Position numbers and translations under genes: made by a program
Origin: Spirochaetales bacterium
Lineage (GTDB): Bacteria > Spirochaetota > Spirochaetia > SZUA-6 > RPPD01
DNA: 64,000 nt
Reading direction: 5' to 3'
Assembly: GCA_016930675.1 (NCBI GenBank)
Contig: JAFGGG010000042.1
Coordinates: 16,423 to 80,422, forward strand
Notes under the pieces: generated by a model
Seen by the model: only the letters and a program-made list of their open reading frames with translations
What the model was told of the DNA's origin: nothing
Databases searched by the model: none
Shown here: positions 21,201 to 39,316 of the stretch, one piece after another
How positions within the stretch are numbered: the stretch's first letter is position 1
Layout of the letters: each line of letters opens with the position of its first letter

Positions 21201-21275
21201 ATTGAGGTGCTGGAAATTGTTGAAAAAGTTGGTATATAAAACGCAATGAAGGACCACAGATAGCAAAAACAGCAG

Positions 21276-21305
21276 CGAGGGGAACATTTGTTTCCCTCGT
21301 TTTTT
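21276..21305. terminator. Bidirectional rho-independent terminator between the convergent 20802-21200 (+) gene and the ape-like cluster (-)
   Basis: Stem cgaggg(g)aa / ttccctcg with 7-nt loop followed by TTTTTT. Reverse complement also ends in a T-run. Confidence 0.6.
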
Positions 21306-22543: not shown

Positions 22544-23277
22544 TATATCATTCCTCCATTGACTGAAATCACCTGCCGGGTTATATACGCTGCGGAATCG
22601 GATAAGAGGAAAATTGCCAATGCCGCTACTTCTTCCGGTTTCCCCATCCGCCTGAGAGGAATCATGGTACGAATATGATCCCAGGGAATTTCTTTACTCA
22701 TAGCCGTTTCAATGATACCCGGCGCTATGCAGTTAACCGTAATATTCCGTTTGCCCATCTCAATGGCCAGGGCCTTTGTGGCACCGATAATACCCGCTTT
22801 GGCCGCACTGTAGTTTACCTGTCCGCGGTTTCCCACAAGACCGGATATGGATGAGATAGTAATAATCCGGCCGGGTTTGCGGGTCTGCACCATCGGCATG
22901 ATAAGGGGATGGAGCACATTGTAAAAACTGTCAAGATCAGTGTGGATAACTTTATCCCAATCCTGTTCACTGATAGAGGGAAATGCGTTGTCGGCGGAAA
23001 CTCCTGCGTTACAAACAACACCGTAATAAACTCCATTATGTTCGATATCCTGTTCAAGAACCTGTCTTGTTCGTGCCCTGTCTGTAATGTCAAATTGGAG
23101 AAGACGCCCGCTGTTTCCGCTTTTTAACAGGGATTTTTTTACCTCTGCGGCTCCTTCCGCATCGCTTCGATAGTGAATGATTGCCTCATAACCTGCCGCG
23201 CCCGCGGCCAGGGCAATAGCTTTGCCTATACCCTTGCTGGCTCCTGTTACGAGTACGGATTTTTTTTCTTTATTCAT
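22543..23277 (-). CDS. 3-oxoacyl-ACP reductase (SDR; FabG/ApeQ-like)
   Basis: TGASKGIGKAIA Rossmann motif. Catalytic YSAAK. 244 aa. Confidence 0.8.
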   Translation of the reverse strand: MNKEKKSVLVTGASKGIGKAIALAAGAAGYEAIIHYRSDAEGAAEVKKSLLKSGNSGRLLQFDITDRARTRQVLEQDIEHNGVYYGVVCNAGVSADNAFPSISEQDWDKVIHTDLDSFYNVLHPLIMPMVQTRKPGRIITISSISGLVGNRGQVNYSAAKAGIIGATKALAIEMGKRNITVNCIAPGIIETAMSKEIPWDHIRTMIPLRRMGKPEEVAALAIFLLSDSAAYITRQVISVNGGMI

Positions 23278-23752
23278 TTTGTGCGCCTGTCATTTTTTTT
23301 ATTAGTGTATCATTCGCGGATATGGTGCTTAGAGTGCCTGCCGCGAATTCCTTTTTGGATATTGAAGCCTTTCCTTCGAATACCGCGACATCGCCGTCCC
23401 TGAATACCTGCTTTACAAGAATGGTTACCCTGCTGCCGGGGGCAAAACCCTTCTGGTATGTGATAAAATCGCGTATTGCCATAATAAATCCGATCTTTGG
23501 TCGCTGTGCCTTTAGTATGCTGCTGATACCGGACAGAAGTGCAATGTTTTGCGCCATATATTCAAAGGCAATCCAACAGGGGATGATCCCCGATTCAGCG
23601 TCAAAAAATATACTCTGTTCTGTTACATCGACAGAGGACTTGAGAAAAGCGTGCTCTAAGGAATAATCTTCCAGCCGGTCGATGAGCAGCATGAGGTTTT
23701 TATGAGGAGAGTATTTGAAAAGCTCCGGTTTGGTTACAGGTGTATTAATCAT
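23270..23752 (-). CDS. Hotdog-fold dehydratase (ApeP/FabZ-like)
   Basis: 160-aa protein in the conserved DH slot between KR and KS. Hotdog-like central helix segment (IPCWIAFEYMAQNIALL). Confidence 0.55.
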   Translation of the reverse strand: MINTPVTKPELFKYSPHKNLMLLIDRLEDYSLEHAFLKSSVDVTEQSIFFDAESGIIPCWIAFEYMAQNIALLSGISSILKAQRPKIGFIMAIRDFITYQKGFAPGSRVTILVKQVFRDGDVAVFEGKASISKKEFAAGTLSTISANDTLIKKMTGAQNE

Positions 23753-24940
23753 TTAACCCTCCTCGCGAGTAATGATAAGACTGACATTGCATCCGCCGAA
23801 AGCATAGGAATTACTCATGCAATTATATATTCTTTTCGTCTTATAGCCAACCGGAATAAAATTAAGAACAGGCAGACCCTCTTCAGGCTCTTCGTCCCAA
23901 ATATGAGGCGGGAGCAGGATTTCATCGTCATTTTGAGACAAAACAAGCCAACAGAAAGCCAACTCCATAGCTCCGGCAGCTCCCAGAGTGTGGCCGATCA
24001 TGGTTTTTGTACTGCTGCAGGGAGGAATATTTTTAAAAACACGACCGGTAGCCTTACATTCCATTCTGTCATTCAACATGGTTCCTGTTCCGTGCAGGTT
24101 GATGTAATTAATATCTTCAGCTGCAAGCCCGGCATCCTTAAGAGCTCTACGCATTGATTCCGAGGCCCCAATTCCTTCCGGGTCCGGGGCAGTTATATGA
24201 TAGGCGTCTGAGCTTTCACCGCAGCCTGTCAGGCTGATATTGCACTGTGCAGTCTGATCTTTGGTAACAATAAAGAGAGCAGCTCCTTCACCCAGGTTGG
24301 TTCCCTTGCGGTTTTTACTGAAAGGCTTGCACGGTTCCCTATCTACGGCCTCCAATGAATGGAAGCCGAGGAGAATCGGATCGGATACAATATCCGCGCC
24401 GCCGGTTATTACAGCGTCACAGACTCCCGAATTGAGCAGGCTGCGGGCAAAAATAAAAGCGCGCGCACTGGAAGTACAGGCAGTCGATATATTGCAGGCT
24501 ATACTTTTTAGATTTAGATATTCTTTAACAAAGCAGGAGCTGTTGTGAGCTTCTTGTTTGTGAAAGCTGTAATCTTCCGGAAAAGATCCGCTCTCCTGAT
24601 ATATTCTTAACGCCTGGAGGGATTCCTCCGATCCGTTATCTGTGGAACCTATCACTACACCTATGCGCTGAGACCCGAACCGAGAAATAAGCTTGTCAAC
24701 TGCCGGTCGAATTTGATCACAAGCATAAGCAAGCAGGCGGTTAAGGCGATTATCATAGACACGTGGCAGTTTCCGGGTTTGCTTCGGGCTCACTGCAGCG
24801 ACAGTAAAGGTTCCCTGTGTGTTTGTTTGCCGCTTAAGCCCCTCTCTGCTTCCCCGAAGGAGGTTGTCCAATATCATATGCTTATTATATCCCAAGGCGT
24901 TTATGATCCCCAGATTGTTCAGGTAAATTTTGCTTTTCAC
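23753..24940 (-). CDS. Beta-ketoacyl synthase (ApeO-like position)
   Basis: 395 aa. Active-site Cys in STACTSSARA. His motifs NLHGTGT and IGHTLGAAG. Confidence 0.75.
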   Translation of the reverse strand: MKSKIYLNNLGIINALGYNKHMILDNLLRGSREGLKRQTNTQGTFTVAAVSPKQTRKLPRVYDNRLNRLLAYACDQIRPAVDKLISRFGSQRIGVVIGSTDNGSEESLQALRIYQESGSFPEDYSFHKQEAHNSSCFVKEYLNLKSIACNISTACTSSARAFIFARSLLNSGVCDAVITGGADIVSDPILLGFHSLEAVDREPCKPFSKNRKGTNLGEGAALFIVTKDQTAQCNISLTGCGESSDAYHITAPDPEGIGASESMRRALKDAGLAAEDINYINLHGTGTMLNDRMECKATGRVFKNIPPCSSTKTMIGHTLGAAGAMELAFCWLVLSQNDDEILLPPHIWDEEPEEGLPVLNFIPVGYKTKRIYNCMSNSYAFGGCNVSLIITREEG

Positions 24941-25581
24941 GGTATGGATTCCTCCCGAATAGTATATCCATACTCTCTGAGGTGATTTTTGTAGTTCAGA
25001 TCATTGCCTTTTCGCTGTATATGGATAATGAGTTGTGCTCCGTCTAGTATTCTGCGCACCCAGCCATCGGGCTGCGGGATTTCCTCAAAAATCAGACCGG
25101 CTTCCCGGATCATGGATTCCACGGCAGAGCGCGGAAAATAACATAGCTGAAAATCCGCGACGATATATTCGGGCTTAATATCGGCTGTTGCCTGCGGGCT
25201 GTGAAAAACCATATCGGAATTTTTATATGCCAGATCATAAACTTGGGTGCCGAGGTTGTTGAAACTGATAATATTGATTTCTTCAAGATTGGTTTGAACC
25301 AGGGCTTCAATGGAGTAGGTCCGGGATTTATAATAGCCGTCAATTATCTGATAGATCTCAAACTCATTCTCCACAGCCTGTGTAGGCAACAGGGTAATAT
25401 GTTTTTCGTCGGTAAGGTAAACGGGAGCAGGTATGTGCGTCCCAGGCGGAGAACCGGCGCATGCAGCAGTCATAATGGATACCGTTATCACCATTTTTAA
25501 AATCAGGAGGAGTTGAAATAAAAAAGTTTTATTCTTGATGAAATTGCTATATAATTTCAACACGGATGAGAAAAAAAACAT
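24937..25581 (-). CDS. DUF3261-like lipoprotein (ApeN-like position)
   Basis: Hypothetical secreted protein in the slot between MMPL and KS. Probable true start at the internal Met (MVITVSIMTAACAGS, ~25494), giving a signal peptide with Cys. Confidence 0.4.
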   Translation of the reverse strand: MFFFSSVLKLYSNFIKNKTFLFQLLLILKMVITVSIMTAACAGSPPGTHIPAPVYLTDEKHITLLPTQAVENEFEIYQIIDGYYKSRTYSIEALVQTNLEEINIISFNNLGTQVYDLAYKNSDMVFHSPQATADIKPEYIVADFQLCYFPRSAVESMIREAGLIFEEIPQPDGWVRRILDGAQLIIHIQRKGNDLNYKNHLREYGYTIREESIP

Positions 25582-26221
25582 GGGTATAATTTACTTGGGA
25601 TTAATAAATGTTTCAATACTAAATAGCGATAGATTCAAGGTAAAAGAAGCCACAAAAAATCTCTTTCATACTATGATACGCCGGTTGCATCCTGCTTCAG
25701 CAATTGATCTGGAGGTAAAAACGGGGCCACATGGAAAACCTTATCTTCCCCGACATCCTTCCTGGTACTTCAATGTAAGTCATGCCGGCAGGATGGGAGC
25801 ATGCGCCATAGCACGAATTCCCTTGGGAATTGATATTGAACTGATTGATGAACGGCGGCATTGGAAAACGATCGCGGAGCATTTTTATCATAACCGGGAG
25901 ATCGCCTATCTTTCGAACCAGGCAGGCAACAGCTGCGCAGTATTTTACCATCTATGGACTCGTAAAGAGTCTTGGCTGAAACTCCATGACATGACGATCT
26001 GGCAGACAAGTCAAGCACCGTGCTGCTTGGATTTATCCGACACAGAGACTGATGTATGGACGTGGCAGGGAAGCGGATGTGCTTCGTTCTCCTTATCTCT
26101 TCGGATTAACAGCGATGAAAAAAAATATTCGGTTCGATTTATTGAGGAGTTTATACCTGAAGGAATACACCTGCAGCAGGTTAGTCTGAAGGGGGGCTCT
26201 CTTTTTTGCCGATCAGAATAG
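25535..26221 (+). CDS. 4'-phosphopantetheinyl transferase (Sfp/EntD-type), encoded antisense within the cluster
   Basis: Motifs FNVSHAG, GIDIE, WTRKESWLK. A start at the second in-frame Met (~25580) is possible. 3' end overlaps the MMPL 3' end by 41 bp (convergent). Confidence 0.7.
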   Translation: MMKLLYNFNTDEKKNMGIIYLGLINVSILNSDRFKVKEATKNLFHTMIRRLHPASAIDLEVKTGPHGKPYLPRHPSWYFNVSHAGRMGACAIARIPLGIDIELIDERRHWKTIAEHFYHNREIAYLSNQAGNSCAVFYHLWTRKESWLKLHDMTIWQTSQAPCCLDLSDTETDVWTWQGSGCASFSLSLRINSDEKKYSVRFIEEFIPEGIHLQQVSLKGGSLFCRSE

Positions 26222-28580
26222 GTGTGAGTAAAAACGACAGCAACACGCCCAGAGCAACCGTCAAACCGAAAACAGCGGCCAAAGACGTAAAACCCAGCAT
26301 GCCGAAGCTGAGGATGGTTGTAAGCATACTCAGTGTAATTGCCAGAAGGGTGGGCCGTGGGTGTGATTTTCCTTCGGAAAAAAAGATCACGTAATCCGTG
26401 CCCATGCCCGGAACAAGAATAAGTCCCATTACAGAAAATACATTAAAGGGCAGTCCCGCCAGATTTAGAAAAGAGATCACAATACAACTGGCCAGGCAGG
26501 GAATAATAATTATTTTGAAACCTCTCAGCCATTTATAGCGGAAGACGAGTCCGCCAAAAATCAAAACATACGAGATGCATAAAATAATGAGAGCCAAAAC
26601 ACTGAGACTGTGCAAGGTGGAATTAATTTCGCTGATCCTATTAATGAAATATCTGGAAGAAGAGCTGTTTACAATGGATTTCACTCCTTCAATATTGGTT
26701 ATGTTAAAAAGCATTACCATCGAATAATATTTGTCGTTTGCCTGTCCCAACCAGAGCATAGCAAAAAGATCTCCTATTGGAAAATCTTCCAGGATTTTTA
26801 AATCCACCCACTGGTCCTTTTTCTCACGATAATCAGTTTCCCAACTTTGGATTTCCGCCTTTCCGAAACCCAGCGACTCCAGTTGTGCGGGGATCGCGTT
26901 TTTTAAGTATTTCCCGATCAGTTCATAATTCTCCGCTTGGCGCCCGCGGGAAGGAATGAAAAAAGTCGATCCGAGATATGACTCTATAAAACCATTTTCG
27001 CGTGCTTGTGACAGATCCGAAATAAGCTGTTCTTCCTTTGTTCTGAGGGCTTCGGGGTTATCACCTTCCACTAAAACATATACGCACGAGGAGCCGTGTT
27101 TTAAAATCGAAGACATCAAAGTTTCACTTTTTTTCAATGCCGGACTCATCTGATATAGTGTTCGCACATCACTATTCAACTGTAGCTGAGACAAGCCTGC
27201 GCAGGTTATTCCTAAAAAAAGAATTCCGAAAAAGAATTTTAATAAAAAGGGCAGCTCCTGCAGGTTTTTGAACGCTGTATAAAAAAAAGATCCTGCTTTG
27301 TTGGAAATCCGGCCGGTTTTTTCGCCGGCCCTTTTAAATTTCGGAAAAATAAAAATTACACTCAGATAACTACTCATCAGTCCAATAATAGAAAAAAGAG
27401 CCATTTGTTGAAGAAGGGGAAAAGCGGTAAACACAAACGCCAGGTAGCTGGCTAATGTGGTAAGCAGTCCCAAGCTTATTCCGGGAAGAATAAAACGAAT
27501 AATCCGGGCAACGGATTTTTCACCGGGTAGCGTGGCCCAATGAGCAAAGAAATGCAGAGCATAGTCCAGACTTATACCGATGAGACTCGTTCCAAAAACG
27601 ATTGTGAAAATATGAACATCATGGAAGATCAAAAGGGTGGCTGCAAGACCCGTGACCATTCCTACGATTATAGCTCCGACAGTGGCAAGCAGAGGCTTGA
27701 TGGATCGAAAGACAATCAGAATCATCAGAATGATAAAGAGTATGGAAACCGTACTTAAGAAAGATATCTCTGTTCTGGATGCGCGGGAGCTTTCGTAAGA
27801 GTGAAAGGGTGCGCCGGAAAAAACCAATTCCAAATCAGGCTCCACGGATGAAATTTGCTCTGCTGTACTGTAAATTAAGGAAATCGGACTGTCTTCAACC
27901 TGTACCGAAAAACCGGATCCTGCTGTTCTCGCGGAAATCAGAACCCATGATTTACCTTCATAATCAGTACTTAAAACACCGTCTCGCAGTCCGACGGACA
28001 TGTTTGTAAGAATACCCGAGTTCAGGTAGTACTGGAGACTGGAATTAACCAATAAAAAGGGATCGAGATCCAAATGATCCAGACTGCCCAAACTCAAAGG
28101 ACTTGCCACCGCCATATAAGCATTTTCTGCCAGTTCTTGTATTCTTCCGTTAAGGAGAATTGCTCGGATTTCGGGAGTCAGTAACTGGTAGCGGTAAATA
28201 AAAAGAAAGTCCTGTAGCTGTTTGAGATTTGTTTTGTCAATTTCCAATCGCACATTTTGGAATCCGCTGTGAGTTCGCATACGCGAAACCATTTTTACAG
28301 CGTACGAGCGAGCGGTGGTAAAATCCTTATGTCCGATAAGGAGATAAACAGCACTGTTAAACCTCTGATTGATGACCTTCTCCACATTGGAGACGGCTTT
28401 TACGGGACTGGTATGTGGCAGGAGAGAGGTAAGGTCGCTGTTCACGGAATAGTTACCGCTTAAAAGCAAACAAAGGAAAATGAACACATGGAAACAAATC
28501 CAAATGAGGAGATGAAATTTCCTGCTATTCTGCCAGCACTTAAAAAAAAGATTAAAAGAAGGCTTTTTCATCAGCAGCAC
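26181..28580 (-). CDS. MMPL/RND-superfamily exporter (ApeM-like)
   Basis: 799 aa. Two blocks of ~6 TM helices separated by large soluble loops. Confidence 0.7.
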   Translation of the reverse strand: MLLMKKPSFNLFFKCWQNSRKFHLLIWICFHVFIFLCLLLSGNYSVNSDLTSLLPHTSPVKAVSNVEKVINQRFNSAVYLLIGHKDFTTARSYAVKMVSRMRTHSGFQNVRLEIDKTNLKQLQDFLFIYRYQLLTPEIRAILLNGRIQELAENAYMAVASPLSLGSLDHLDLDPFLLVNSSLQYYLNSGILTNMSVGLRDGVLSTDYEGKSWVLISARTAGSGFSVQVEDSPISLIYSTAEQISSVEPDLELVFSGAPFHSYESSRASRTEISFLSTVSILFIILMILIVFRSIKPLLATVGAIIVGMVTGLAATLLIFHDVHIFTIVFGTSLIGISLDYALHFFAHWATLPGEKSVARIIRFILPGISLGLLTTLASYLAFVFTAFPLLQQMALFSIIGLMSSYLSVIFIFPKFKRAGEKTGRISNKAGSFFYTAFKNLQELPFLLKFFFGILFLGITCAGLSQLQLNSDVRTLYQMSPALKKSETLMSSILKHGSSCVYVLVEGDNPEALRTKEEQLISDLSQARENGFIESYLGSTFFIPSRGRQAENYELIGKYLKNAIPAQLESLGFGKAEIQSWETDYREKKDQWVDLKILEDFPIGDLFAMLWLGQANDKYYSMVMLFNITNIEGVKSIVNSSSSRYFINRISEINSTLHSLSVLALIILCISYVLIFGGLVFRYKWLRGFKIIIIPCLASCIVISFLNLAGLPFNVFSVMGLILVPGMGTDYVIFFSEGKSHPRPTLLAITLSMLTTILSFGMLGFTSLAAVFGLTVALGVLLSFLLTPILIGKKESPPSD

Positions 28581-29196
28581 TCAATTCAACAGGGTAGGTA
28601 ATATCCGCAAACTCATAAGATACTGTATCGCCGTTTGCTTCAGTTAATATGAATTTTTCAAGATCGACCGCACCGTGTATTTCTATAGAAGAAATAATAT
28701 CACGCAGTGTTCTGTCCCGGGGTTTCAGACCGATAGTCCAGGTGCTTGGGGTATCTTTATAATAGTAAATTTCAAAATCGCGTTCCAATTCAGGAAGATT
28801 CCCTTTAAATATCGCCTGAATGGTAGAGGAAAAGCGCTTGAAAGTATCATTATCACGTGCGGAAAGCGTGCTTATTTTGCCGCTCGCGCTTTTTTGCACC
28901 AGCCTATCGCTTGTTATTATCGTAACACTCGGAAACGGGCTTATTACTTCCCACAGCAGACCGCGATCCACGACAAAGATCATTTTCCCGGTAGAGTTTA
29001 AAGTTCGGGACAAGCGGGAGATCTTTTTGGTTTGGGTGAAAGAGGCTTTAATCAGTTTGTGTGATGCAATCCTTGCTGAAATCGCTTTGACTTCCGGACG
29101 TGAACTGTCCGTTAACGGGTATGAGAACACATTCTGGGCATCCCCGGGAAAAGTAGATAAGAAGAAGATAAGCAAAGAAAAAATCGCGGATTTCAC
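28552..29196 (-). CDS. LolA-like outer-membrane lipoprotein carrier protein (ApeL-like)
   Basis: Signal peptide. ~190-aa mature beta-barrel-like protein in the conserved slot between thioesterase and MMPL. Confidence 0.55.
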   Translation of the reverse strand: MKSAIFSLLIFFLSTFPGDAQNVFSYPLTDSSRPEVKAISARIASHKLIKASFTQTKKISRLSRTLNSTGKMIFVVDRGLLWEVISPFPSVTIITSDRLVQKSASGKISTLSARDNDTFKRFSSTIQAIFKGNLPELERDFEIYYYKDTPSTWTIGLKPRDRTLRDIISSIEIHGAVDLEKFILTEANGDTVSYEFADITYPVELSAADEKAFF

Positions 29197-29633
29197 TATG
29201 ATTTTTCCTCCTGTTTTATTTTTGTTTTTACCGCGTTCACCAAGCAGGGAGGAGAGACTAAGAGGCTGTTTCCCGTGCTGAGATCAACCGCCATCTGTAC
29301 TGTTTCAGCTTTATTGAACATCGCTTTGGAGCCGGGATCGATTATCACATAACCGATTCTGATACGATGCTTATACTCCAACAGCGTGGCACGAATAATG
29401 AATTCCTGATTGTAGAAAATCGGTTTGATATACTTCAGTTTCATGCTTACTATGGGCCATATGTACCCACTGTCTTCCATCTCTTGATAGTTAAAGCCGA
29501 TTGTATCCAGCAGAGCGCACCGCGCTTTTTCCATATATTTCACATAATTACCATGCCAAACTACTTTCATTGCATCCACATCATAATATTCAGATTTCAA
29601 CCTGACTTCGGCAAACAAAAGCTTAGCTGTCAT
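29196..29633 (-). CDS. 4HBT-family (hotdog) acyl thioesterase (ApeK-like)
   Basis: YYDVDAMKVVWHGNYVKYME motif typical of 4HBT thioesterases. The longest ORF extends to 29711 but overlaps the lyase gene by 89 bp, so the start is more likely the internal Met (~29633). Confidence 0.55.
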   Translation of the reverse strand: MTAKLLFAEVRLKSEYYDVDAMKVVWHGNYVKYMEKARCALLDTIGFNYQEMEDSGYIWPIVSMKLKYIKPIFYNQEFIIRATLLEYKHRIRIGYVIIDPGSKAMFNKAETVQMAVDLSTGNSLLVSPPCLVNAVKTKIKQEEKS

Positions 29634-31158
29634 AATTAAGGCTCCAATGACGACTTCTGATGAGAGTAACGATTTCTCGTAATTCTTTTTCCAAAGGCCG
29701 GTCTTCATCAATAAATGTAAAAACTTCGTATATTTGATCTAGAGTATCTGCAACAGGTTCGAGCATTTCCGTTTTCAGTTCACCGGCTTTTTTTCGCAGC
29801 TCTATGGCTTGAGCCACGGCAAGCAGACAGGCGGCGGTTACCTGTTCCGTCAGTTCAAGAACGCGAATACAGTCCCGCGCGGAAATCGTACCCATACTCA
29901 CCTTATCCTGGTTGTGGCATTCCGTGGATCTGGAGAAGACGCTTGCGGGCATAGTGTTCTTGAGAGCTTCCGCAGTCCAGGCTGACACACCGATCTGTAC
30001 AGCCTTGAACCCATGGTTGTAGGAGTGGTCTTTGCTCCCGGAAAGATTGGGAGGAAGACCTCGATTGTATTTTTCATCAACCAAGACAGCCAGCTGTCGG
30101 TCCAGCAGGTCTGCGATATTGGCAATAATATTCTTTAAAGAGTCCATTACAAATGCGATATGACCGCCGTAAAAATGTCCTCCGTGCATAATTGAACGGC
30201 TTTTCGGATCTATAATGGGATTATCATTCGCGCTATTCAATTCGTTTTCGATCATTTGTCTGAACAGAGCGGCTGAATCATAGAAGATCCCGATTATGTG
30301 CGGAGCGCAGCGAAGTGAATAAGGATCCTGGATTCGTTCGGCCGTAATTCCCATTTTTGCATAACATTCCAAATCCTTAAGGATTCTACTTGCTGACAGA
30401 TTTTGCCCGGGATGGTTCTTAACCGCGAAAAGTTTTTCATCAAAATGATGCGCGTTGCCTTTAAGCGCCAGTACAATCATGGCGGTGATGCGGCAGGATA
30501 AATCAGCGAGGTATTCAGCTCGTTTGAAGGCGAAACAGGCTATGGCTGTCATCACCGCTGTTCCGTTCATTATGGCTAAACCTTCCTTGGGACGGAGTTT
30601 GACCAAAGGAAGATCGAGTTTATCCAAAATGTCTTTTGCCGATCGCTTTTCCCCTTTATACAGTACGTCCCGTTCTCCTATGAGAACTGCTGCGACATAG
30701 GAGAGTGGCGTGAGATCGCCGCTGGCTCCGACGGAACCTTCCTGGGGGATAAGGGGCAGAATGTCGTGGTGCAGCAGTTCTGCCAAACCCTGGAGAAGCT
30801 CGTAACTTACACCGGAAAAACCCAGACAGAGAGATTGAAGCCGAGTCGCGATAATAGCTCTGGTGGTCTCTTCATCAAAATAATCGCCAAGGCCGCAGCC
30901 GTGAAAGCGAGTCAGATTAACGGGGAGATTGTGATACCGCTTATCTGGTACGGTTTTGCTGCAGGAATCACCAAATCCTGTGGTTACTCCGTAAATATTT
31001 CCATTGGCGGCCAGGACCTCATCAAGGAACTGAGCGCCGCTGTTGATTTTTTTCTTGAAAGATTCGTCTTTTGCCAACACGGCGGCAAGCTGTTGTTTGG
31101 ACAGTCCTATGATATTTTCAATAGTCAGTCGTTCTCCGTTAAATTCTACATGGTTCAT
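29623..31158 (-). CDS. MIO-dependent aromatic amino-acid ammonia-lyase (HAL/PAL/TAL family; context suggests tyrosine/phenylalanine ammonia-lyase)
   Basis: 511 aa. MIO-forming triad Ala-Ser-Gly in GSVGASGDLTPLSYVA. FHGCGLG segment places His at the expected selectivity-switch position. No hut genes nearby. Confidence 0.8.
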   Translation of the reverse strand: MNHVEFNGERLTIENIIGLSKQQLAAVLAKDESFKKKINSGAQFLDEVLAANGNIYGVTTGFGDSCSKTVPDKRYHNLPVNLTRFHGCGLGDYFDEETTRAIIATRLQSLCLGFSGVSYELLQGLAELLHHDILPLIPQEGSVGASGDLTPLSYVAAVLIGERDVLYKGEKRSAKDILDKLDLPLVKLRPKEGLAIMNGTAVMTAIACFAFKRAEYLADLSCRITAMIVLALKGNAHHFDEKLFAVKNHPGQNLSASRILKDLECYAKMGITAERIQDPYSLRCAPHIIGIFYDSAALFRQMIENELNSANDNPIIDPKSRSIMHGGHFYGGHIAFVMDSLKNIIANIADLLDRQLAVLVDEKYNRGLPPNLSGSKDHSYNHGFKAVQIGVSAWTAEALKNTMPASVFSRSTECHNQDKVSMGTISARDCIRVLELTEQVTAACLLAVAQAIELRKKAGELKTEMLEPVADTLDQIYEVFTFIDEDRPLEKELREIVTLIRSRHWSLNYDS

Positions 31159-32141
31159 TTAGATGCTCCCTTATTGTTGTTTTTTAAGGTCTGAGGAGTT
31201 TTCCAGAAATCAAAAAAATTATACCATTGATAAGGATGCTTGCGGCATAGATCTTCCAGATAGTGGATATATTCTTCCATTAAACCCTTAATTTTAGCCA
31301 TGCGTTCCTTTCGTGATCCGGAAAGATCAAATTTGGATTTATAGACATGGAATTCATAGGGACTCTTCAGATCTAGATCATGTTTGCGAACTGCGAACAT
31401 ATGATAAAGCGGTGCGTCCAGAAGACTGGCAAGAATAAATGCGCCTATTGGCAAATGCGCCTCTTTACCGAGAAATTTAAGAACTATGGTTTTTGATTGG
31501 TTTTTAGCGGCCGTTCTGTCCGCGGCAATGATTACAAGTTCACCTTGATTAAGCCGGTTTGAAAGATCGATAATGGTATCGGCTCCGATCGCCGAAGCAC
31601 TGATGAGCCGCAACATTGAAGCAGGATTTATTTCTGAAAGCAGTCTGTTAAATTTGCTTGTACCGGAAAAGTCTACGATTGAGTTAATACCGAATGGCGG
31701 AAGAGATGTGCCGGCTTCAAGACTGGCGAGCGCGCGCAGCATCTCCGTATTGCCTAAATGTGAACAGAGAATAACGGCACCTTTTCCATCTATAAGCTGT
31801 TTGACCAGCAGGTCGATATCCGAACTCTTTAACAAGAGATCTTTAACGGTAATCTGTTGTGACCAGGCAGCGAGTTTTTCTAAAAGCGCGTAGGCAAAAC
31901 AATAAAAGTGCCTGTACACGTTTTTCAATGTGACGGAAGGCAGATGCTCAAGACGGGCTACTGCGCTCAGGAAGTTTCTGCTTACTCTCCGGGAACCCGG
32001 TGAAAAGAGAAAGAAAAAAAATACAATAAAATGCAGAAGGGTTCTCATCGTATGCAGACCAAGGTTGCGGTAGAGATTGAAGACTAATTTCATTTGCCAG
32101 ACGCTGCCGGCCATCTCTTTCTGTTTCGACCAATGAGTCAT
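31155..32141 (-). CDS. LpxL/HtrB-like lysophospholipid (lipid A-type) acyltransferase (ApeJ-like)
   Basis: N-terminal TM helix. H-x4-acid segment (CSHLGNTE). 328 aa. Family assignment from overall pattern and position. Confidence 0.55.
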   Translation of the reverse strand: MTHWSKQKEMAGSVWQMKLVFNLYRNLGLHTMRTLLHFIVFFFFLFSPGSRRVSRNFLSAVARLEHLPSVTLKNVYRHFYCFAYALLEKLAAWSQQITVKDLLLKSSDIDLLVKQLIDGKGAVILCSHLGNTEMLRALASLEAGTSLPPFGINSIVDFSGTSKFNRLLSEINPASMLRLISASAIGADTIIDLSNRLNQGELVIIAADRTAAKNQSKTIVLKFLGKEAHLPIGAFILASLLDAPLYHMFAVRKHDLDLKSPYEFHVYKSKFDLSGSRKERMAKIKGLMEEYIHYLEDLCRKHPYQWYNFFDFWKTPQTLKNNNKGASK

Positions 32142-32914
32142 CGGCTTTCTCCTTTTTTTAAATGCCGTTTTATTTTTTTTAAAATCAGATGGGGGAATTT
32201 TATCAGCATATTAAAAAAGAGAATTGTGTGAATCCGGCTGATCGCCAGATTGTCTCTGAATAAATGAAAATGAGATCTTCCTCCTTCGGGATAGATTATT
32301 TTAATGGGGAGAAATTTCATCCGTACTCCCATCCAGTAAAGACGTACGAGAATTTCAATATCGAATTCCATTCGGAGCGAGAGGCGTTTTGAGCTCAACA
32401 AACGGTGGCAGGCTGTGAGAGGATATACTCTGAATCCACACATCGCGTCCGGGATCTCTCTGGAAATAGTCTCCACCATCACCCAAAAATTTGTGATTTC
32501 TCGTCCGATTTTACGGGACGTGGGTGCTGAGTCGTCGTATATGGGTTGCCCGGCAATTAACATGTCGGGAACCTTGTGAGCCTGGTCTAAAAAAATAACA
32601 ATTTGTTCCAGATCATGCTGGCCGTCGGCATCTATCTGAAGAGCATGGGAAAATCCTGCTTCATATGCTTTTTTAAGGCCATAAGCCACGGCGCTGCCTT
32701 TACCGCGGTTGACCGGCAATGTATGGAGTGCGCAGTTATCCATGCGCCGTGTGATCGCTCGCAACTGTTTTTTTGTATCCGCGTTGCTCCCGTCGTCTAT
32801 AAGCATGACGGGCAGGCCGTGATCGGCACAGGCATCAACAACATCTCCGACAGTCGAGCCGTGATTATACACCGGTATAATCACGCAGGGTCTAAACTCA
32901 GAAGCAAAGCTCAT
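32138..32914 (-). CDS. Family 2 glycosyltransferase (DPM1-like)
   Basis: VMLIDDGS and QIDADGQHD (DxD) motifs. 258 aa. Confidence 0.7.
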   Translation of the reverse strand: MSFASEFRPCVIIPVYNHGSTVGDVVDACADHGLPVMLIDDGSNADTKKQLRAITRRMDNCALHTLPVNRGKGSAVAYGLKKAYEAGFSHALQIDADGQHDLEQIVIFLDQAHKVPDMLIAGQPIYDDSAPTSRKIGREITNFWVMVETISREIPDAMCGFRVYPLTACHRLLSSKRLSLRMEFDIEILVRLYWMGVRMKFLPIKIIYPEGGRSHFHLFRDNLAISRIHTILFFNMLIKFPHLILKKIKRHLKKGESR

Positions 32915-34641
32915 GTTGTTTCCTTAAATATGATTTTTCCTTGAGAATAAGCTGTTCCATCCTGAGGATTTTTATAACTGAATTTTATTTGCTTATTATC
33001 TAAATTTAAATGAATATCGAGGTTTACCGGTGTGTCGGGGAAAATAGGTTTCAGCAGTTTAAACAGGGGTATTTTTTGCATAGCAATGTTAAGTCCAGAC
33101 TTTTTTTGTAAAAACTTCATGACCCAGTCCACCTGCGCCACGGCCGGGAGGATTTTCATTTCCGGGAAATGCCCTTGAAAGTGAATATAATCCTCAGGAA
33201 AACTTAATGTGAGCAATATTCTATCAATTTTCTGCTTACTGTCAAGGATTACGGGTTCCAAACAGTAGGCTGAAGCTTCTTTGTTAAACAGCTCCTTTAT
33301 GATGTTAATATTGATCTTTCCCTGGGTATTTCGTGGTATGGATTCGAGAAAGCGCCATTTTTTGGGTATGACCGTAAGTTCAAAATACGGTCGTAAAAAA
33401 TATCTAAAAAAGTCGTTGAGGTCTTTTTTCTGTTTGCCCTTGAATTTTATGCTTCCTTTCCGGTTGAGCACTACAGCAGCCGCCAAAAATTGACGACCCT
33501 TTTCCAGGGCAAGAACAATTACATCTTCAACAAGTCCGGTTTGGATGATTCTGTTTTCAACGTCGTTAAGTGCCACCCTCTTTTCTTCAATTTTAACGAT
33601 GGAATCCGTTCTGCCGAACAAGCGCAAGGTACCGTCATCGAGAATTTCTACACGGTCATCGATTGTAAGGAAACCGGATTCGCTTAAATAAGGGGATGAA
33701 AGAGCTAGATGTATTCCATCCGGCGATTTTATTTTGATGCCGGGGAATGGAGTCCAGGATAGGTTTCCCGGAGAAATTCTCCAGGCAATGCCGCCTGTTT
33801 CCGTGCTTCCATAGATCTCAAACACATCGGTTCCCAGATAAGCCCGACTTTGGACGGCAGAGAAGTCAGGGAGGAATCCTCCGGAAGAAAAAACCTTCCT
33901 GGGGGATTTCTTAAGCAGGGGAAGAGAGTTTTTATCACTAAGGCGCTTTAAAAAGGCGGGACTGGTGACAAGGACTGTGTTTTGTTTACCCACATGCGTC
34001 AAGCTTTCGGGATAATGAACTCTCATGGGAGCTATAGAGGATCCCAGACAAAAAGGCAACAGCGCTGTAAAAAGAAATCCATAGTAATGTTGCGGACTTA
34101 CGGTGGAGTAGACTGTTGCGTTGTGGTAATCATTACTCCAAAGCTTGGCCAGGTTTTTTAGCTCGTTTTCTATTTGGATAAAGGTTTTTGGGACCTGTTT
34201 GGGTTTTCCCGTACTTCCGGATGTATGAAATGTAATTAGGATTTTTCCCGCGTCTAAAAGGGGAAAATCTTGAGGGGCAGTCTCTGAAAACGATTCTTCA
34301 CTGAAGCATAACTTCAATGTTGCGTTTTCTACAGAATCACTTAATAGAGGAGCATCTGCTTCAGGTGAGGAAACCGGAATAATAGGCGCGGTATGAGGCA
34401 GATGTACTTCTTTTCCGCATTGCAATAAGGCAAACAGGCCGAGGATAAAGAGACTATGATCTTCTGCGAACAGACTCCAGCGATCGTTAGGGGAGGATGC
34501 AATTTTTGATCTTAAAAATTCAAGCTCGCGGGTAAAGCGGTTCCAGGTTATCGCCTTTCTTCCTTGTTGAGATATTGAAAACAGATGATCCTGATTTCTG
34601 GAGGATGAAGAGAGTGATAAGAGGGAAATATAATCTGTCAT
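32911..34641 (-). CDS. AMP-dependent (acyl/aryl)-CoA/ACP ligase fused to a C-terminal FabZ-like hotdog dehydratase domain (ApeH+ApeI-like)
   Basis: AMP-binding motif TSGSTGKPK. C-terminal ~130 aa with FabA/Z-like HFQGHFPEMKILPAV motif. 576 aa. Confidence 0.7.
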   Translation of the reverse strand: MTDYISLLSLSSSSRNQDHLFSISQQGRKAITWNRFTRELEFLRSKIASSPNDRWSLFAEDHSLFILGLFALLQCGKEVHLPHTAPIIPVSSPEADAPLLSDSVENATLKLCFSEESFSETAPQDFPLLDAGKILITFHTSGSTGKPKQVPKTFIQIENELKNLAKLWSNDYHNATVYSTVSPQHYYGFLFTALLPFCLGSSIAPMRVHYPESLTHVGKQNTVLVTSPAFLKRLSDKNSLPLLKKSPRKVFSSGGFLPDFSAVQSRAYLGTDVFEIYGSTETGGIAWRISPGNLSWTPFPGIKIKSPDGIHLALSSPYLSESGFLTIDDRVEILDDGTLRLFGRTDSIVKIEEKRVALNDVENRIIQTGLVEDVIVLALEKGRQFLAAAVVLNRKGSIKFKGKQKKDLNDFFRYFLRPYFELTVIPKKWRFLESIPRNTQGKININIIKELFNKEASAYCLEPVILDSKQKIDRILLTLSFPEDYIHFQGHFPEMKILPAVAQVDWVMKFLQKKSGLNIAMQKIPLFKLLKPIFPDTPVNLDIHLNLDNKQIKFSYKNPQDGTAYSQGKIIFKETT

Positions 34642-35225
34642 CTGCTCAACTTTACTTTTCTATAAAGATATTCTCCTGCCAACAGTGCTCCAATGAAAAT
34701 GTAGGAGATGAAGCCATTATAAATTGCCCAGATAATTTCATCTGCCAGGAAAGCGGTGAGCGCGGAAACAGAGCCGTTGAAAATAAAAAAAATACACCAG
34801 ATTCGGGTTACGACCATGCAGTATGATTTGATGGCTTTATTGTCCGCTGAATCGGGGATGCTCTTATCTTTAAGAATCGCGAAACGGTAGATCATGGAGG
34901 GGCCGCGGAATAAGGTGAAACCAAAGCTTGCAAGCAAGGATATATTTATAATTACGGGGTAAAGTTTGAGAAGTCCTGCATTCTCGGTTAGAAATGTCAA
35001 AAACGCAAGCGCCGCAACCACAATGGTCATCACCCAGAATTGTATGCCGCGGAATCCTTTACTCTTTCCATCCCCGGAATAAGTGATAAAATACACGAGA
35101 CCGATGGCCACAAGGGCAAGCACTAACACTCTTGGACTTGCCTTGAACCAGAGAAATCCGATCAGAATTGTAAAAGGATATAGTACGGAAAGGATAAAAA
35201 GTACAATTTTTAGTACTCGATTCAC
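34638..35225 (-). CDS. Polytopic membrane protein (hypothetical; cluster-associated)
   Basis: 195 aa, 5-6 predicted TM helices. Confidence 0.45.
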   Translation of the reverse strand: MNRVLKIVLFILSVLYPFTILIGFLWFKASPRVLVLALVAIGLVYFITYSGDGKSKGFRGIQFWVMTIVVAALAFLTFLTENAGLLKLYPVIINISLLASFGFTLFRGPSMIYRFAILKDKSIPDSADNKAIKSYCMVVTRIWCIFFIFNGSVSALTAFLADEIIWAIYNGFISYIFIGALLAGEYLYRKVKLSR

Positions 35226-35488
35226 TAAACCGGTCCATTATTCTCTTTTATAAGCTGATGAACGGCATCCACGATATCTCCTACGTTCCGCACATTTTTA
35301 AATACTTCGGGAGCTATTTTGCGATCAGTGTAGTTTTGAAGTTTGACAATTAAATCCACAGCATCAATGCTGTCCAGATCCATGTCTTCAAAAAGCCGGG
35401 TCTCGGATTTGATATTTTCTTTTGGAATTTCAAAAGTTTCATTGAGTATGGTGGCGACCTCTTTGAATATGTTTTCTTTAGACATCAT
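35225..35488 (-). CDS. Acyl carrier protein
   Basis: 87 aa. Phosphopantetheine-attachment Ser in DLDSIDAVDL. Confidence 0.7.
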   Translation of the reverse strand: MMSKENIFKEVATILNETFEIPKENIKSETRLFEDMDLDSIDAVDLIVKLQNYTDRKIAPEVFKNVRNVGDIVDAVHQLIKENNGPV

Positions 35489-35500
35489 TTTTTTCTCCAG

Positions 35501-35785
35501 TTATTTATTACGTTCGCCCTCAGCTATAAAATTGGCAAGTGTGCGTACAGAATAAAAGTGTTTCTGATTATCTTTATCTTCAGCAGATAGATTTATATTA
35601 TACTTTTTTTTAATCGCTATGCCGAGTTCCAACGCGTCGATTGAATCCAAACCAAGGCCTTCTCCGAACAGGGGTGCCTCGGGATCAATATCTTCAGGAG
35701 TAATATCCTCTAAATCAAGCGAGTTGATGATTATTAATTTTATTTGCGCTTCGAGATTCTTCATTGAACTATGATTTTTATCCAT
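35501..35785 (-). CDS. Acyl carrier protein (second copy)
   Basis: 94 aa. GLGLDSIDALEL motif. Confidence 0.7.
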   Translation of the reverse strand: MDKNHSSMKNLEAQIKLIIINSLDLEDITPEDIDPEAPLFGEGLGLDSIDALELGIAIKKKYNINLSAEDKDNQKHFYSVRTLANFIAEGERNK

Positions 35786-36548
35786 TAATAATAGCTTTTT
35801 TCAAATCTTGCGTCAATAGTCTTGACGCTTTGGCTATGGACAAGTCAGTATATTTTTTGGGTTCTAAGAGGCTTTTTATCTTTAAATGATACCTCACAAT
35901 CCCGGAATCAGGTGATGAGAAAGCTGAATCACCTTTTGCAAGTCCTTTAGGGGAACCGGCAGAAATCTGAATCGGGAGGATGCTGAACCCTGTGCGGAGG
36001 GATATCTGCGCAGCACTTCGCTGCAGCCTGATATTCTGACTGTCCATAGTCCGCGTTCCTTCAGGAAAAATAATGAGATTATTCCCTTTCCTGAGTGAAC
36101 GGTCACATGCTTTTATGGTATCTTCCGCATTCAATGAATTGGGAATGTATACGCTTCTCACCACACCCTTGATGAAAATATTATTCCAGAGTTTGGCTTT
36201 GACAATACAATCAGCCTGGGGCACTAAACTCATAAGGATTACCACGTCAATAAGTGAGGGATGGTTTGCGCAGATTATCATGTGACGGAAATTTTTTATT
36301 ATTGTTACGTTATCGACTTTTAAACTTATAAGTCTTAAGAATCTCATTAGATAAACGAATATGCTAAAGCTGAAACGAATAATGCTGCGTTTGATATGAC
36401 TGAGGCGATCTCCGTGCTGGATAAAAATATTAATAACGGGAAATAAGATGTTCGCCAGAATAAGGCTGCCTATACCGAACCAAAAAAAAGCATAAAACTT
36501 GGCTATTACATGATATACCTGACGGATTTTTTTATAGACAAACATCAT
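35778..36548 (-). CDS. 1-acyl-sn-glycerol-3-phosphate acyltransferase-family protein (PlsC-like; ApeD-like)
   Basis: HX4D motif NHPSLIDV. FPEGTRT motif. N-terminal TM segment. Confidence 0.7.
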   Translation of the reverse strand: MMFVYKKIRQVYHVIAKFYAFFWFGIGSLILANILFPVINIFIQHGDRLSHIKRSIIRFSFSIFVYLMRFLRLISLKVDNVTIIKNFRHMIICANHPSLIDVVILMSLVPQADCIVKAKLWNNIFIKGVVRSVYIPNSLNAEDTIKACDRSLRKGNNLIIFPEGTRTMDSQNIRLQRSAAQISLRTGFSILPIQISAGSPKGLAKGDSAFSSPDSGIVRYHLKIKSLLEPKKYTDLSIAKASRLLTQDLKKAIING

Positions 36549-37285
36549 GAGGGATTAGTCCTTAACATCATTTTTATTCCGGAGGCATGACAGCTAAAGG
36601 GATCCTGGCTGTCCGTGGCAAGCCAGCGCAGAAAACAAAGAGGATGCTCAGGAGATGTATTGTTGGCAGAGCTATTAATCTCAATTGTACAGGCGCGTGA
36701 TCCGGGCAGTGATGTGGAAGAGAAAAGCACTCCCAAAGCATAAGGTTCCGGAATAGAACTAAACAGAGAATGATAAGCGGGGGGAATATTCTCATCGGCA
36801 AAAATAACCATGCAGTCCTTTCCCGTATTTGATTGAAGAAATCCTATCATTTCCAAAAAAGCCACAACGAGGCATTGGTCGCCTGAGTAGACCGCTGAAC
36901 TTGTTTCATTGTTTCCTTCGGCGATAGACAGGAGAAACGCCGGCGCGTTGAAAACAGAAAGACTAAAAACGGCCGGGCTTACCTCCTGGGTATCGATAAG
37001 CTGTTTTGAGATCTTGTACTGTTTATTGATTTCTCCGTAGTGCGACGCAAAAACACAGGGTGTCTGCTTCTCAGCCGGTATCAGAGTGTGCCCTATGTGC
37101 AGAACCATCTTGCTCAGCTGGCTAAGTCTGCGTCGGAAAAGAGACGGCAGAAATTCCAAAGCAGGTGTTTCTGATGTCTTGCGAATTTCCGTTTCCCCTC
37201 GCCCCCAGGATTGCACGGCTTGAACGGTTTCTAATCCCGGAGCCCAGGCTGTCCATCGGGATAGATACAGAGAAAAGCTTTTCAT
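36545..37285 (-). CDS. Beta-ketoacyl synthase-like N-terminal-domain protein (chain-length-factor-like partner; ApeC-like)
   Basis: 246 aa, no active-site Cys motif. Sits in the slot of the truncated KS-like protein of ape clusters. Assigned by position and weak thiolase-fold similarity. Confidence 0.4.
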   Translation of the reverse strand: MKSFSLYLSRWTAWAPGLETVQAVQSWGRGETEIRKTSETPALEFLPSLFRRRLSQLSKMVLHIGHTLIPAEKQTPCVFASHYGEINKQYKISKQLIDTQEVSPAVFSLSVFNAPAFLLSIAEGNNETSSAVYSGDQCLVVAFLEMIGFLQSNTGKDCMVIFADENIPPAYHSLFSSIPEPYALGVLFSSTSLPGSRACTIEINSSANNTSPEHPLCFLRWLATDSQDPFSCHASGIKMMLRTNPS

Positions 37286-38410
37286 TTAAGTTTTCCTGAA
37301 TCTGAGAATTGAGTAGTCGTGAGGACCTACGTCGTGTATTTCCCCCTGCAGAGCGAATCCCGCCCTGGTTATGGCGCGAATCAATTCATGGGATTTATAC
37401 ATTTTACTGTTTCCATTGGCCATGGTTGTGAAGTAAAGCGAGGTTGCGTGCAAAGAGTAGGTTGCGGCAGGATAGTGTTGTTTATCCCAAAAAGGTTCCA
37501 TTATAAATATATCACAGTTTATAGCTACGGCTTCCGCTACCTTGCTTAAAATTTGTGTTACTTGGTCCAGGGAAAAGCAGTCCAAGAACTGGCTCATCCA
37601 TACCGCATCGGCATTTTCCGGAAGTTCCGCTTCAGGATCAAGTACGTTTGCTTCATGAATAAAGATCCGTTCCGCGGCACCGGCTCGGGTTATATTCTGC
37701 CGGGCAAGATCGGCTTGCCCGGGAAGGTCCACGATGGTAATCTTCACGTCTGAGTTATAATTATAGCAGGTTAAAGCCCACTTGGCCGTGTTCCCTCCGA
37801 TATCCACAAGATGCCTTCTGGGCCGGGCAAAAACAAACTCCAAAGCCTCGGAAAAGGCTCTGTCGGAATAGAAATGGTCGAACCCGAACCAACTTTTTTG
37901 TACCTCTTGAGGAAGTGATGACAGTCCTTCATAGATGGTCTGCCAATCACCAAAGACTTTAAGCCCGGCCGGTTTTCCTTGTTTTAGGGCTTGTTCCGTG
38001 TAGAATCCTCCTTTATAACAGACATCATGCATGAAATCCATATTTACCCTGGTTAACGGATCATGGAGCAGGAAATAACCGGTTTTGCCTAATATGTATC
38101 GCCAAGGTCTGATGTGGGGTTTGATTTTTAGCATATCCATACTTAAACCTATTTCAAGCAGAACTCCGACGGCATAGTCACTTAGGTCCAAAGAGTCTGT
38201 TATCTGTTCTCGGGTTAATCCTTCATCCTTCGCACCGGAGAGGAGTTCAAGAACTCCCAAATCGCGTAAACTGCGCGCTGCCTGGAAGGTTAAAGGAGCA
38301 AAAGCAATTTTTTGGGCATTGAATTTTGCATGTACCGCTGCAATGTTATCCTCTGAGTACCATTTTTCCAGTATTGGATTATATTCATCATTCACGGCAC
38401 ATTTTACCAT
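37286..38410 (-). CDS. Class I SAM-dependent O-methyltransferase (dimerisation-domain type; ApeB-like)
   Basis: 374 aa. SAM-binding LVDIGGNTAKWAL. Acidic loop TIVDLPG. First gene of the cluster. Confidence 0.65.
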   Translation of the reverse strand: MVKCAVNDEYNPILEKWYSEDNIAAVHAKFNAQKIAFAPLTFQAARSLRDLGVLELLSGAKDEGLTREQITDSLDLSDYAVGVLLEIGLSMDMLKIKPHIRPWRYILGKTGYFLLHDPLTRVNMDFMHDVCYKGGFYTEQALKQGKPAGLKVFGDWQTIYEGLSSLPQEVQKSWFGFDHFYSDRAFSEALEFVFARPRRHLVDIGGNTAKWALTCYNYNSDVKITIVDLPGQADLARQNITRAGAAERIFIHEANVLDPEAELPENADAVWMSQFLDCFSLDQVTQILSKVAEAVAINCDIFIMEPFWDKQHYPAATYSLHATSLYFTTMANGNSKMYKSHELIRAITRAGFALQGEIHDVGPHDYSILRFRKT

Positions 38411-39170: not shown

Positions 39171-39316
39171 ACATTTCTCCTTTTCATTAGATATTTTATC
39201 GATTATAGGTTTATCTCGATTGGAAATATTATGAGCATAGAAAGGATATGTCAAGAATCGGAGTGATACTTCCACCATAAAGCACAATAGAAATGTCCTC
39301 AAAAGATTATTTAATC

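Follow-up and report, generated by a model that had tools for sequence, protein, structure and literature searches.

Aryl polyene (APE) clusters have been described as the family of biosynthetic gene clusters that is most widely distributed among bacteria, and the source of the aromatic starter of each APE subtype decides the head group of the pigment and whether the pathway depends on 4-hydroxybenzoate of the kind made by UbiC. We examined 64,000 nucleotides of a Spirochaetales metagenome-assembled genome (MAG; assembly GCA_016930675.1, contig JAFGGG010000042.1, positions 16,423 to 80,422; hereafter the window), in which a gene for an aromatic amino-acid ammonia-lyase dependent on the 4-methylidene-imidazol-5-one (MIO) cofactor is embedded in an APE-type operon. 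As judged by protein and gene-order comparisons, this enzyme is the already described standard lyase of the Vibrio-type APE cluster (APE_Vf, 'subfamily 2'), here present in a spirochaete, and is not an unusual addition. We assign a probability of roughly 0.6 to the reading that the gene encodes the dedicated MIO ammonia-lyase of such a cluster, in which it would convert tyrosine to a 4-coumarate starter.

The presence of an MIO lyase of 511 residues with the motif GASGDL, as given by the first-pass annotation, was borne out by the profile search. The protein matches Pfam PF00221 (Lyase_aromatic) over residues 11-467 (523 bits, E = 8.3e-157), and positions 1-462 of the 466 in the profile are covered, i.e. 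the match is full-length. Two sets of references were aligned with it: the Rhodobacter sphaeroides tyrosine ammonia-lyase (TAL) RsTAL (2o6y), which was solved with the ligands coumarate and caffeate, its variant H89F (2o78) and the phenylalanine ammonia-lyase of parsley (PcPAL) with HMMER; and Pseudomonas putida histidine ammonia-lyase (PpHAL, whose sequence was checked against PDB chain 1gkm_B), RsTAL, PcPAL and a FlxA-family TAL of Flavobacterium johnsoniae with MAFFT. The last of these (P0161) was taken as the FlxA-family reference on the basis of 904 bits with the NCBIfam model FlxA_rubin_TAL (NF053541, cut-off 700). The Ala145-Ser146-Gly147 triad is located within GSVGASGDLTPLSY and aligns with residues 149-151 of RsTAL, 202-204 of PcPAL and 142-144 of HAL (MAFFT). 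Together with the triad, the residues Y56, N198, Q277, Y280, R283, F329, N416 and Q417 fall opposite catalytic residues in RsTAL, PcPAL and HAL (HMMER and MAFFT); the catalytic Tyr, the MIO triad, the Asn, the Tyr/Arg pair and Asn-Gln are shared with RsTAL. The best PDB matches are RsTAL structures (HMMER, E = 9.7e-72, 35% identity). An AlphaFold (AF2) monomer model had a pLDDT of 83 and a pTM of 0.87, with active-site loops below a pLDDT of 50, and Foldseek returned TM scores of 0.84-0.87 to RsTAL, HAL, AvPAL and SgTAM, all close to 0.85, which did not tell TAL, PAL, HAL and aminomutase apart. An identical NCBI protein is named 'aromatic amino acid lyase [Spirochaetales bacterium]'. On these alignments, the gene encodes an intact MIO enzyme in which no catalytic residue is missing.

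The gene is part of a tightly packed 18-gene APE operon, which runs on the minus strand from 38410 down to 21311 with gene ends that overlap or nearly abut. Upstream, its start codon and the stop codon of the LpxL-like acyltransferase gene share 4 nt (ATGA). Downstream, its overlap with the thioesterase gene is 11 nt if the latter starts at the ATG at 29633, the more plausible start, which is preceded by GGAG, and 89 nt if it begins at the listed TTG at 29711. The position between these two genes, overlapping both, had been described correctly, and the overlaps show a lyase gene that is, by its layout, translationally coupled to both neighbors in the window. The APE_Vf core set is complete in the window: two ketosynthases (KS), a chain-length factor (CLF), a ketoreductase (KR), two dehydratases (DH), two acyl carrier proteins (ACP), an ApeH-type ligase, a thioesterase (TE), a lysophospholipid acyltransferase (LPLAT), a family 2 glycosyltransferase (GT2)/acyltransferase, a LolA-like protein, an MMPL protein, a DUF3261 protein and a methyltransferase (Table 1).

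Relatives of the lyase are numerous. Species-representative genomes (one per species) were scanned for the patterns ECHNQDK and HGGHFYGG, and at least 590 of them carry confirmed relatives. The window cluster proteins were then compared by tblastn with the best 80 of these loci, among which are Treponema, Fibrobacter and a large number of Gammaproteobacteria (Vibrio, Aliivibrio, Photobacterium, Shewanella, Pseudoalteromonas, Pseudomonas, Methylobacter, Pseudoxanthomonas and Stenotrophomonas), with lyases 57-64% identical across phyla. APE genes adjoin the lyase in 78 of the 80 loci, and the remaining two are 3-kb contigs. Most of the 80 have the exact gene order of the window, including LpxL-lyase-TE, and the order CLF-LPLAT-ACP-ACP-membrane protein-ligase-GT2-LpxL-lyase-TE-LolA-MMPL-KS-DH-KR-KS recurs in Gammaproteobacteria, Fibrobacter and spirochaetes; loci L019-L080, which cover those of Aliivibrio (L045/L046) as well as Vibrio (L029-L037), are ordered in this way. 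No protein of the cluster is better conserved than the lyase and the KR. From these loci, it is shown that the lyase clade, as far as gene neighborhoods tell, occurs essentially only inside APE clusters, and in each case adjoins the acyltransferase and TE genes.

Previous studies have reported that the APE_Vf cluster of Vibrio (Aliivibrio) fischeri ES114 includes an ammonia lyase (PMC5851621; PMC8719888), and in one of the two, 'ammonia lyase and acyltransferase' are treated as genes that characterize APE clusters. The lyase of this strain and its gammaproteobacterial orthologues are 58-62% identical to that of the window, are likewise encoded between LpxL-like acyltransferase and thioesterase genes, and have the same active-site and clade residues (R-[F/Y]-H-G-C-G, TG[Y/F]GDSC, HGGHFYGGH and STECHNQDK). 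APE clusters have also been noted earlier in Treponema genomes (PMC8863827). The window differs from Vibrio and Aliivibrio APE_Vf in its host, a Spirochaetales MAG, and in several details of organization: the ligase and the ApeI-like dehydratase are fused, a 4'-phosphopantetheinyl transferase (PPTase) is encoded within the cluster on the other strand, and the methyltransferase gene has the orientation of the remaining cluster genes, in contrast to its divergent orientation in Vibrio. The ligase-dehydratase gave a single tblastn high-scoring segment pair in Fibrobacter (L008), another member of Spirochaetota (L002) and one Pseudomonas MAG (L022), and two separate ones in Vibrio, Aliivibrio, Shewanella and E. 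coli.

The first-pass annotation had assumed that proteobacterial APE clusters obtain 4-hydroxybenzoate from chorismate and lack an ammonia-lyase. This is true of one subtype. E. coli-type clusters start from UbiC-derived 4-hydroxybenzoate (PMC8253772), and the APE clusters of E. coli and Xenorhabdus (ApeA-R) have no ammonia-lyase, unlike the window. The E. coli 042 cluster (L081), located through a blastn search with the KR gene, matches the window gene for gene in order at 26-61% identity, and the lyase gene is the only one that it lacks. On the other hand, the premise does not hold for the Vibrio subtype, given the 78 loci above, mostly of Gammaproteobacteria, and the two studies of V. fischeri. 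The premise applies to the E. coli subtype only, and the window simply carries the Vibrio subtype. The window and E. coli 042 also differ in the organization of other genes. The LpxL-like protein matches E. coli 042 by tblastn at 11331-12251 of that locus, inside the 558-residue GT2 protein ApeJ (10590-12266). In the window, as in every cluster with a lyase, ApeJ is split into GT2 and LpxL-like genes, and the lyase gene directly follows the split-off acyltransferase gene. E. coli has one fused GT2-acyltransferase and separate ApeH and ApeI genes, while the window has the reverse arrangement. The PPTase of E. coli (AcpT) is encoded after the cluster on the same strand, and that of the window inside it on the opposite strand.

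We then considered which kind of MIO enzyme the lyase is. It scored under the cut-off of every NCBIfam model, including both TAL models. The best was the HAL subfamily model PRK09367 (402 bits, cut-off 524), followed by BagA/FevW TAL (NF041222; 393 bits, cut-off 1000), hutH (TIGR01225; 380 bits, cut-off 539), FlxA (NF053541; 356 bits, cut-off 700) and PAL (TIGR01226; 329 bits, cut-off 519), and the aminomutase models scored below the lyase models. The Streptomyces BagA/FevW model, which was compared by score, is among the top scorers for the orthologues as well (393-426 bits for these and the window lyase). Identities are 38% to the FlxA family, 35% to RsTAL, 32% to PcPAL and 31% to PpHAL. The first rank of a HAL model, the alignment of His86 with HAL His83 and the name 'histidine ammonia-lyase' given to homologues in JGI and some NCBI records would fit a urocanate-forming HAL that is in the cluster by chance. 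We consider this highly improbable. Both HAL models remain under their cut-offs; the Ser-His dipeptide and the motif 2 Glu of HAL (PpHAL Glu414) are not matched, as Phe85-His86 and Gln417 stand in their places, with the His alone in common; the open reading frames (ORFs) of at least 170 residues in the 64-kb window contained no domain of a urocanase, imidazolonepropionase or formiminoglutamase (hutU/hutI/hutG), in agreement with the first-pass annotation; and the clade lies inside APE clusters in 78 of the best 80 loci.

A lyase in such a cluster had also been read as the hallmark of flexirubin clusters, which could not be upheld, given that the same clade is present throughout Vibrio-type APE clusters. 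FlxA/FjTAL of Chitinophaga pinensis and F. johnsoniae resembles the window lyase in being an MIO lyase in an aryl-polyene-type cluster with an aryl-acid ligase, and in both enzymes the second switch residue is His and motif 2 carries Gln. In contrast, the first switch residue is Ser in FlxA/FjTAL and Phe in the window lyase (Phe or Tyr in its clade), and the pocket residues Q, F and N-N-D of FlxA/FjTAL are K385, I389 and E413-C-H here. With 38% identity to the FlxA-family protein, little more than half of the FlxA cut-off score (356 of 700 bits) and no DarA/DarB in the cluster, the assignment as a FlxA equivalog was rejected. The dialkylresorcinol genes DarA/DarB are not present in the cluster, where the sole NCBIfam match to them was a 21-bit DarB hit on the ApeR-like KS.

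The 120 best database homologues of the lyase are 59-79% identical to it and come from spirochaetes, Treponema and Fibrobacter. Residue conservation was counted over 197 sequences of the clade. Y56, the ASG triad, H86 (197/197), N198, Q277, Y280, R283, F329, N416 and Q417 are invariant; D64-S65-C66, C88, H328, K385, I389 and E413-C-H-N-Q-D are invariant or nearly so; and position 85 is Phe in 154 sequences and Tyr in 43. By these alignments, the APE-associated lyases are shown to form a discrete and very strongly conserved clade, which is evidently under strong purifying selection. An exhaustive search of 50%-identity representatives further placed the clade within a wider unnamed superclade with [F/Y]-H-G-C-G, GG[N/H]F[Y/F]GGH, the Lys, the Ile and E-x-x-N-Q-D. 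This superclade extends down to approximately 35% identity to the window lyase (35-60% for P0241-P0300) and is distinct from the HAL type (S-H, ..QED), the FlxA type (S-H, N-x-D-N-Q-D) and the RsTAL type (H-L, N-A-N-N-Q-D). It also has multidomain proteins, such as P0262 (2535 residues, lyase domain at 623-1096) and P0269 (975 residues).

The selectivity switch lies in the segment R84-F85-H86-G-C-G-L-G, which is present as the first-pass annotation had reported. That annotation, aligned by eye, put a His at the switch position, one residue off. In both the HMMER and the MAFFT alignments, which have the same register, F85 is opposite RsTAL His89 and PcPAL Phe137, and H86 is opposite RsTAL Leu90, PcPAL Leu138, PpHAL His83 and His80 of the FlxA-family TAL. 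Since F85 is the switch residue of Watts and Louie and H86 comes one position later, the dipeptide is F-H. The RsTAL-type His-Leu switch is not present at the aligned positions, and the PAL-type Phe-Leu switch is incomplete, with the Phe present and the Leu replaced by an invariant His. Other residues differ from RsTAL as well, with Glu, Lys and Ile in place of its Asn432, Met405 and Val409. Schoener et al. have described a motif-2 rule that separates HAL from PAL/TAL (PMC3992019), and Gln417 is of the PAL/TAL type. As the first-pass annotation had also noted, the substrate specificity of the lyase cannot be read from the switch.

With an MIO lyase embedded in an APE-type operon, a starter-unit role, as had been suggested earlier, is the most reasonable function, and the enzyme is, with somewhat better than an even chance, a TAL that makes 4-coumarate. 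APE biosynthesis has been described as the elongation of a 4-hydroxyphenyl starter, whose precursor provides the head-group hydroxyl. FlxA, a proven TAL, is HAL-like at motif 1 and TAL/PAL-like at motif 2, yet prefers Tyr over Phe by approximately 1000-fold (PMC3992019), and ApeH of Acinetobacter baumannii loads p-coumarate as well as 4-hydroxybenzoate onto ApeE in vitro (PMC12624758). We infer the preference for tyrosine from these three points, i.e. the 4-hydroxyphenyl starter, the second-switch His and motif-2 Gln shared with FlxA, and the acceptance of p-coumarate by an ApeH. In such a pathway, the lyase would deaminate L-tyrosine to 4-coumarate, in place of the chorismate-derived 4-hydroxybenzoate of the E. 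coli/Xenorhabdus type, and the 4-hydroxyl would be recognized by the invariant His86, at the position of the HAL/FlxA His, and not by the residue at the position of RsTAL His89. The ApeH-like ligase, which is fused to the ApeI-like dehydratase, would adenylate 4-coumarate and load it onto the ApeE-like ACP, and the KS/CLF, KR and DH would extend it to the polyene. The ApeB/FlxJ-like methyltransferase would methylate the ring, ApeD and the split ApeJ (GT2 plus LpxL-like) would attach the product to a lipid anchor, and the LolA-like and MMPL proteins would export it.

Several observations weigh against tyrosine as the substrate. The classical switch position has Phe or Tyr, with Phe as in PALs; the PAL-like H89F mutant of RsTAL is the best PDB match, slightly above the wild type (245.1 vs 241.9 bits); and the rest of the pocket copies PcPAL, in that K385, I389 and E413 correspond to its K456, I460 and E484, and E413-x-H415 to its E484-x-H486 (MAFFT). 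The lyase is below both NCBIfam TAL cut-offs (FlxA and BagA/FevW). The ApeH-type ligases of lyase-containing and lyase-lacking clusters alike score 85-110 bits with the 4-coumarate-CoA ligase model, all far under its cut-off. E. coli UbiC makes 4-hydroxybenzoate for ubiquinone synthesis, and Vibrio and other aerobic hosts presumably also make this compound, which leaves the need for a lyase in them unexplained. In addition, substrate specificity in MIO lyases is stated not to be predictable from sequence (Schoener et al., PMC3992019), and no biochemical characterization of any member of the clade was found in the literature searched.

The switch residue (Tyr in 22% of relatives), the PcPAL-like pocket and the H89F match would all suit a PAL that supplies cinnamate, in which case the polyene head would be an unsubstituted phenyl or would be hydroxylated later. 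We regard this as unlikely. His86 is invariant where PALs carry Leu, and the same second-position His goes with the strong Tyr preference of FlxA; the PAL model (TIGR01226) stays at 329 bits against a cut-off of 519; the head-group hydroxyl is described as precursor-derived and the starter as 4-hydroxyphenyl; and no hydroxylase was found in the cluster by Pfam and NCBIfam searches.

Another possibility is a different substrate, such as a ring-modified tyrosine, 3,4-dihydroxyphenylalanine (DOPA) or meta-tyrosine, or a 2,3-aminomutase reaction, in which the polar pocket formed by D64-S65-C66, C88, H328 and C414 would perform chemistry that is new for MIO enzymes. The clade is about equidistant from FlxA-type TAL, RsTAL, PAL and HAL (31-38% identity), belongs to a large uncharacterized [F/Y]-H superclade, stays under all equivalog cut-offs and, where other MIO enzymes are conserved, carries substitutions that do not vary within it, such as GGHF in place of GGNF. 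However, the known products of APE_Vf-type and related clusters require only a 4-hydroxyphenyl starter, a nitrogen-containing aryl unit of APE products is not mentioned in the literature searched, and a mutase is disfavored by the lower scores of the aminomutase models. This explanation, too, seems to us unlikely. In a broader form, the APE-associated [F/Y]-His clade (GDSC, GGHF, ECH-NQD) might be a functionally distinct MIO lineage, with either a non-tyrosine substrate or a recognition of tyrosine unlike those of RsTAL (His89) and FlxA (Ser-His), and with an APE initiation independent of UbiC; we think it doubtful. Conversion of tyrosine to 4-coumarate is still the reading that we favor.

The coordinates of the cluster genes and of the lyase motifs are given in Table 1.

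Table 1. Genes of the APE cluster in the window and sequence features of the lyase (coordinates of the window).
Feature	Position	Strand	Basis
ApeB/FlxJ-family methyltransferase	37286..38410	minus	NCBIfam FlxJ_fam_MTase, 486 bits (cut-off 560)
ApeC-like chain-length factor	36545..37285	minus	Pfam Ketoacyl-synt_2, 9e-41
ApeD-like lysophospholipid acyltransferase	35778..36548	minus	Pfam Acyltransferase
Two acyl carrier proteins: ApeF-like (35225-35488), ApeE-like (35501-35785)	35225..35785	minus	
ApeG-like membrane protein	34638..35225	minus	Position kept in other loci; no Pfam match
ApeH-like AMP ligase fused to ApeI-like dehydratase, 576 aa	32911..34641	minus	Pfam AMP-binding and ApeI-like
GT2 glycosyltransferase, counterpart of N-terminal half of ApeJ	32138..32914	minus	Pfam; comparison with E. 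coli 042
LpxL-like acyltransferase, counterpart of C-terminal half of fused E. coli ApeJ	31155..32141	minus	Pfam Lip_A_acyltrans
MIO-dependent aromatic amino-acid ammonia-lyase, APE_Vf-type	29623..31158	minus	511-aa ORF, ATG start
Y56-G-V-T-T-G-F-G-D-S-C66: catalytic Tyr loop, then clade-specific Asp-Ser-Cys	30961..30993	minus	Alignment
Phe85-His86: selectivity-switch dipeptide	30901..30906	minus	HMMER and MAFFT alignments
Ala145-Ser146-Gly147: MIO cofactor precursor	30718..30726	minus	Codons translate to ASG
Q277-D-P-Y280-S-L-R283: substrate carboxylate/amine-binding residues (RsTAL Y300, R303)	30310..30330	minus	Alignment
H325-G-G-H328-F-Y-G-G-H333: His328 replaces Asn of GGNF in HAL/PAL/TAL	30160..30186	minus	Alignment
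E413-C-H-N-Q417-D, 'motif 2': Gln417 of PAL/TAL type (HAL has Glu414)	29905..29922	minus	Alignment
ApeK-like thioesterase, likely ATG start 29633 (listed ORF: TTG 29711)	29196..29633	minus	Pfam 4HBT_2
LolA-like carrier (ApeL)	28552..29196	minus	Pfam search
MMPL/RND exporter (ApeM)	26181..28580	minus	Pfam search
4'-Phosphopantetheinyl transferase (PPTase)	25580..26221	plus	Pfam ACPS
DUF3261 protein (ApeN)	24937..25581	minus	
KS (ApeO), DH (ApeP), KR (ApeQ), KS (ApeR)	21311..24940	minus	NCBIfam PRK09185 and PRK09116 above cut-offs; order, identity

The best NCBIfam model for the ligase-dehydratase fusion is 4-coumarate-CoA ligase, with 102 bits against a cut-off of 335. The PPTase gene, between the DUF3261 and MMPL genes, is on the opposite strand within the cluster; it and the MMPL gene overlap at their 3' ends by approximately 40 nt, and loci L002 (Spirochaetota) and L015 (Treponema) also have an inverted PPTase gene inside the cluster. 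Terminator-like matches in the scanned cluster region, counted over the two strands together, were near chance (24 vs 18.5 +/- 3.5 in shuffles). A strong GC-rich 12-bp hairpin with a T-run was detected at 21274-21301, 10 nt past the last gene of the operon and between it and a convergent ORF of 132 residues (20802-21200); it is probably a bidirectional terminator that marks the end of the cluster. GC content, at 0.42-0.45 within the cluster and 0.38-0.46 in the flanks, does not point to a recent transfer.

Directly upstream of the cluster (38526-44687, minus strand) are genes for two proteins without a Pfam match (258 and 403 residues), two FtsX/MacB-type permeases, an ABC ATPase and a LolA_like protein, which together look like a LolCDE-like export system. 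We rejected these ABC/FtsX/LolA_like genes as members of the cluster, as none of the other 80 loci has them next to its APE cluster. Just downstream is a gene for an alpha/beta-hydrolase (Hydrolase_4) with a hydrophobic N-terminus (19587-20639, minus), which is not kept beside the cluster in other loci either. Farther away, WD40 beta-propeller proteins are encoded at 44823-47864 (1013 residues) and 14265-14885 (206 residues), both on the minus strand, and after the larger gene come two ORFs without Pfam matches (616 and 374 residues; 47891-50801). A V/A-type ATPase operon is present at 2471-8552 (plus strand; A, B, D and I-like subunits and a DUF2764 protein). A DNA photolyase gene adjoins a gene of the DUF1722/2-thiouracil desulfurase type (57575-59925, minus); together with the pigment cluster, this pair hints at light exposure in the habitat of the organism.

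The window adds no new principle to APE biosynthesis; it shows a spirochaete with the ordinary Vibrio-type solution. For the family, the lyase clade is a clean and highly conserved marker that separates the two APE subtypes, and its members are routinely misnamed 'histidine ammonia-lyase' in databases. The remaining interest is modest and lies in a strongly conserved clade with an unusual invariant pocket (F/Y-H, GDSC, GGHF and ECH). If the clade were indeed a functionally distinct lineage, the lyase would be the determinant by which spirochaetes, Fibrobacter and similar anaerobes could produce aryl polyenes without UbiC.

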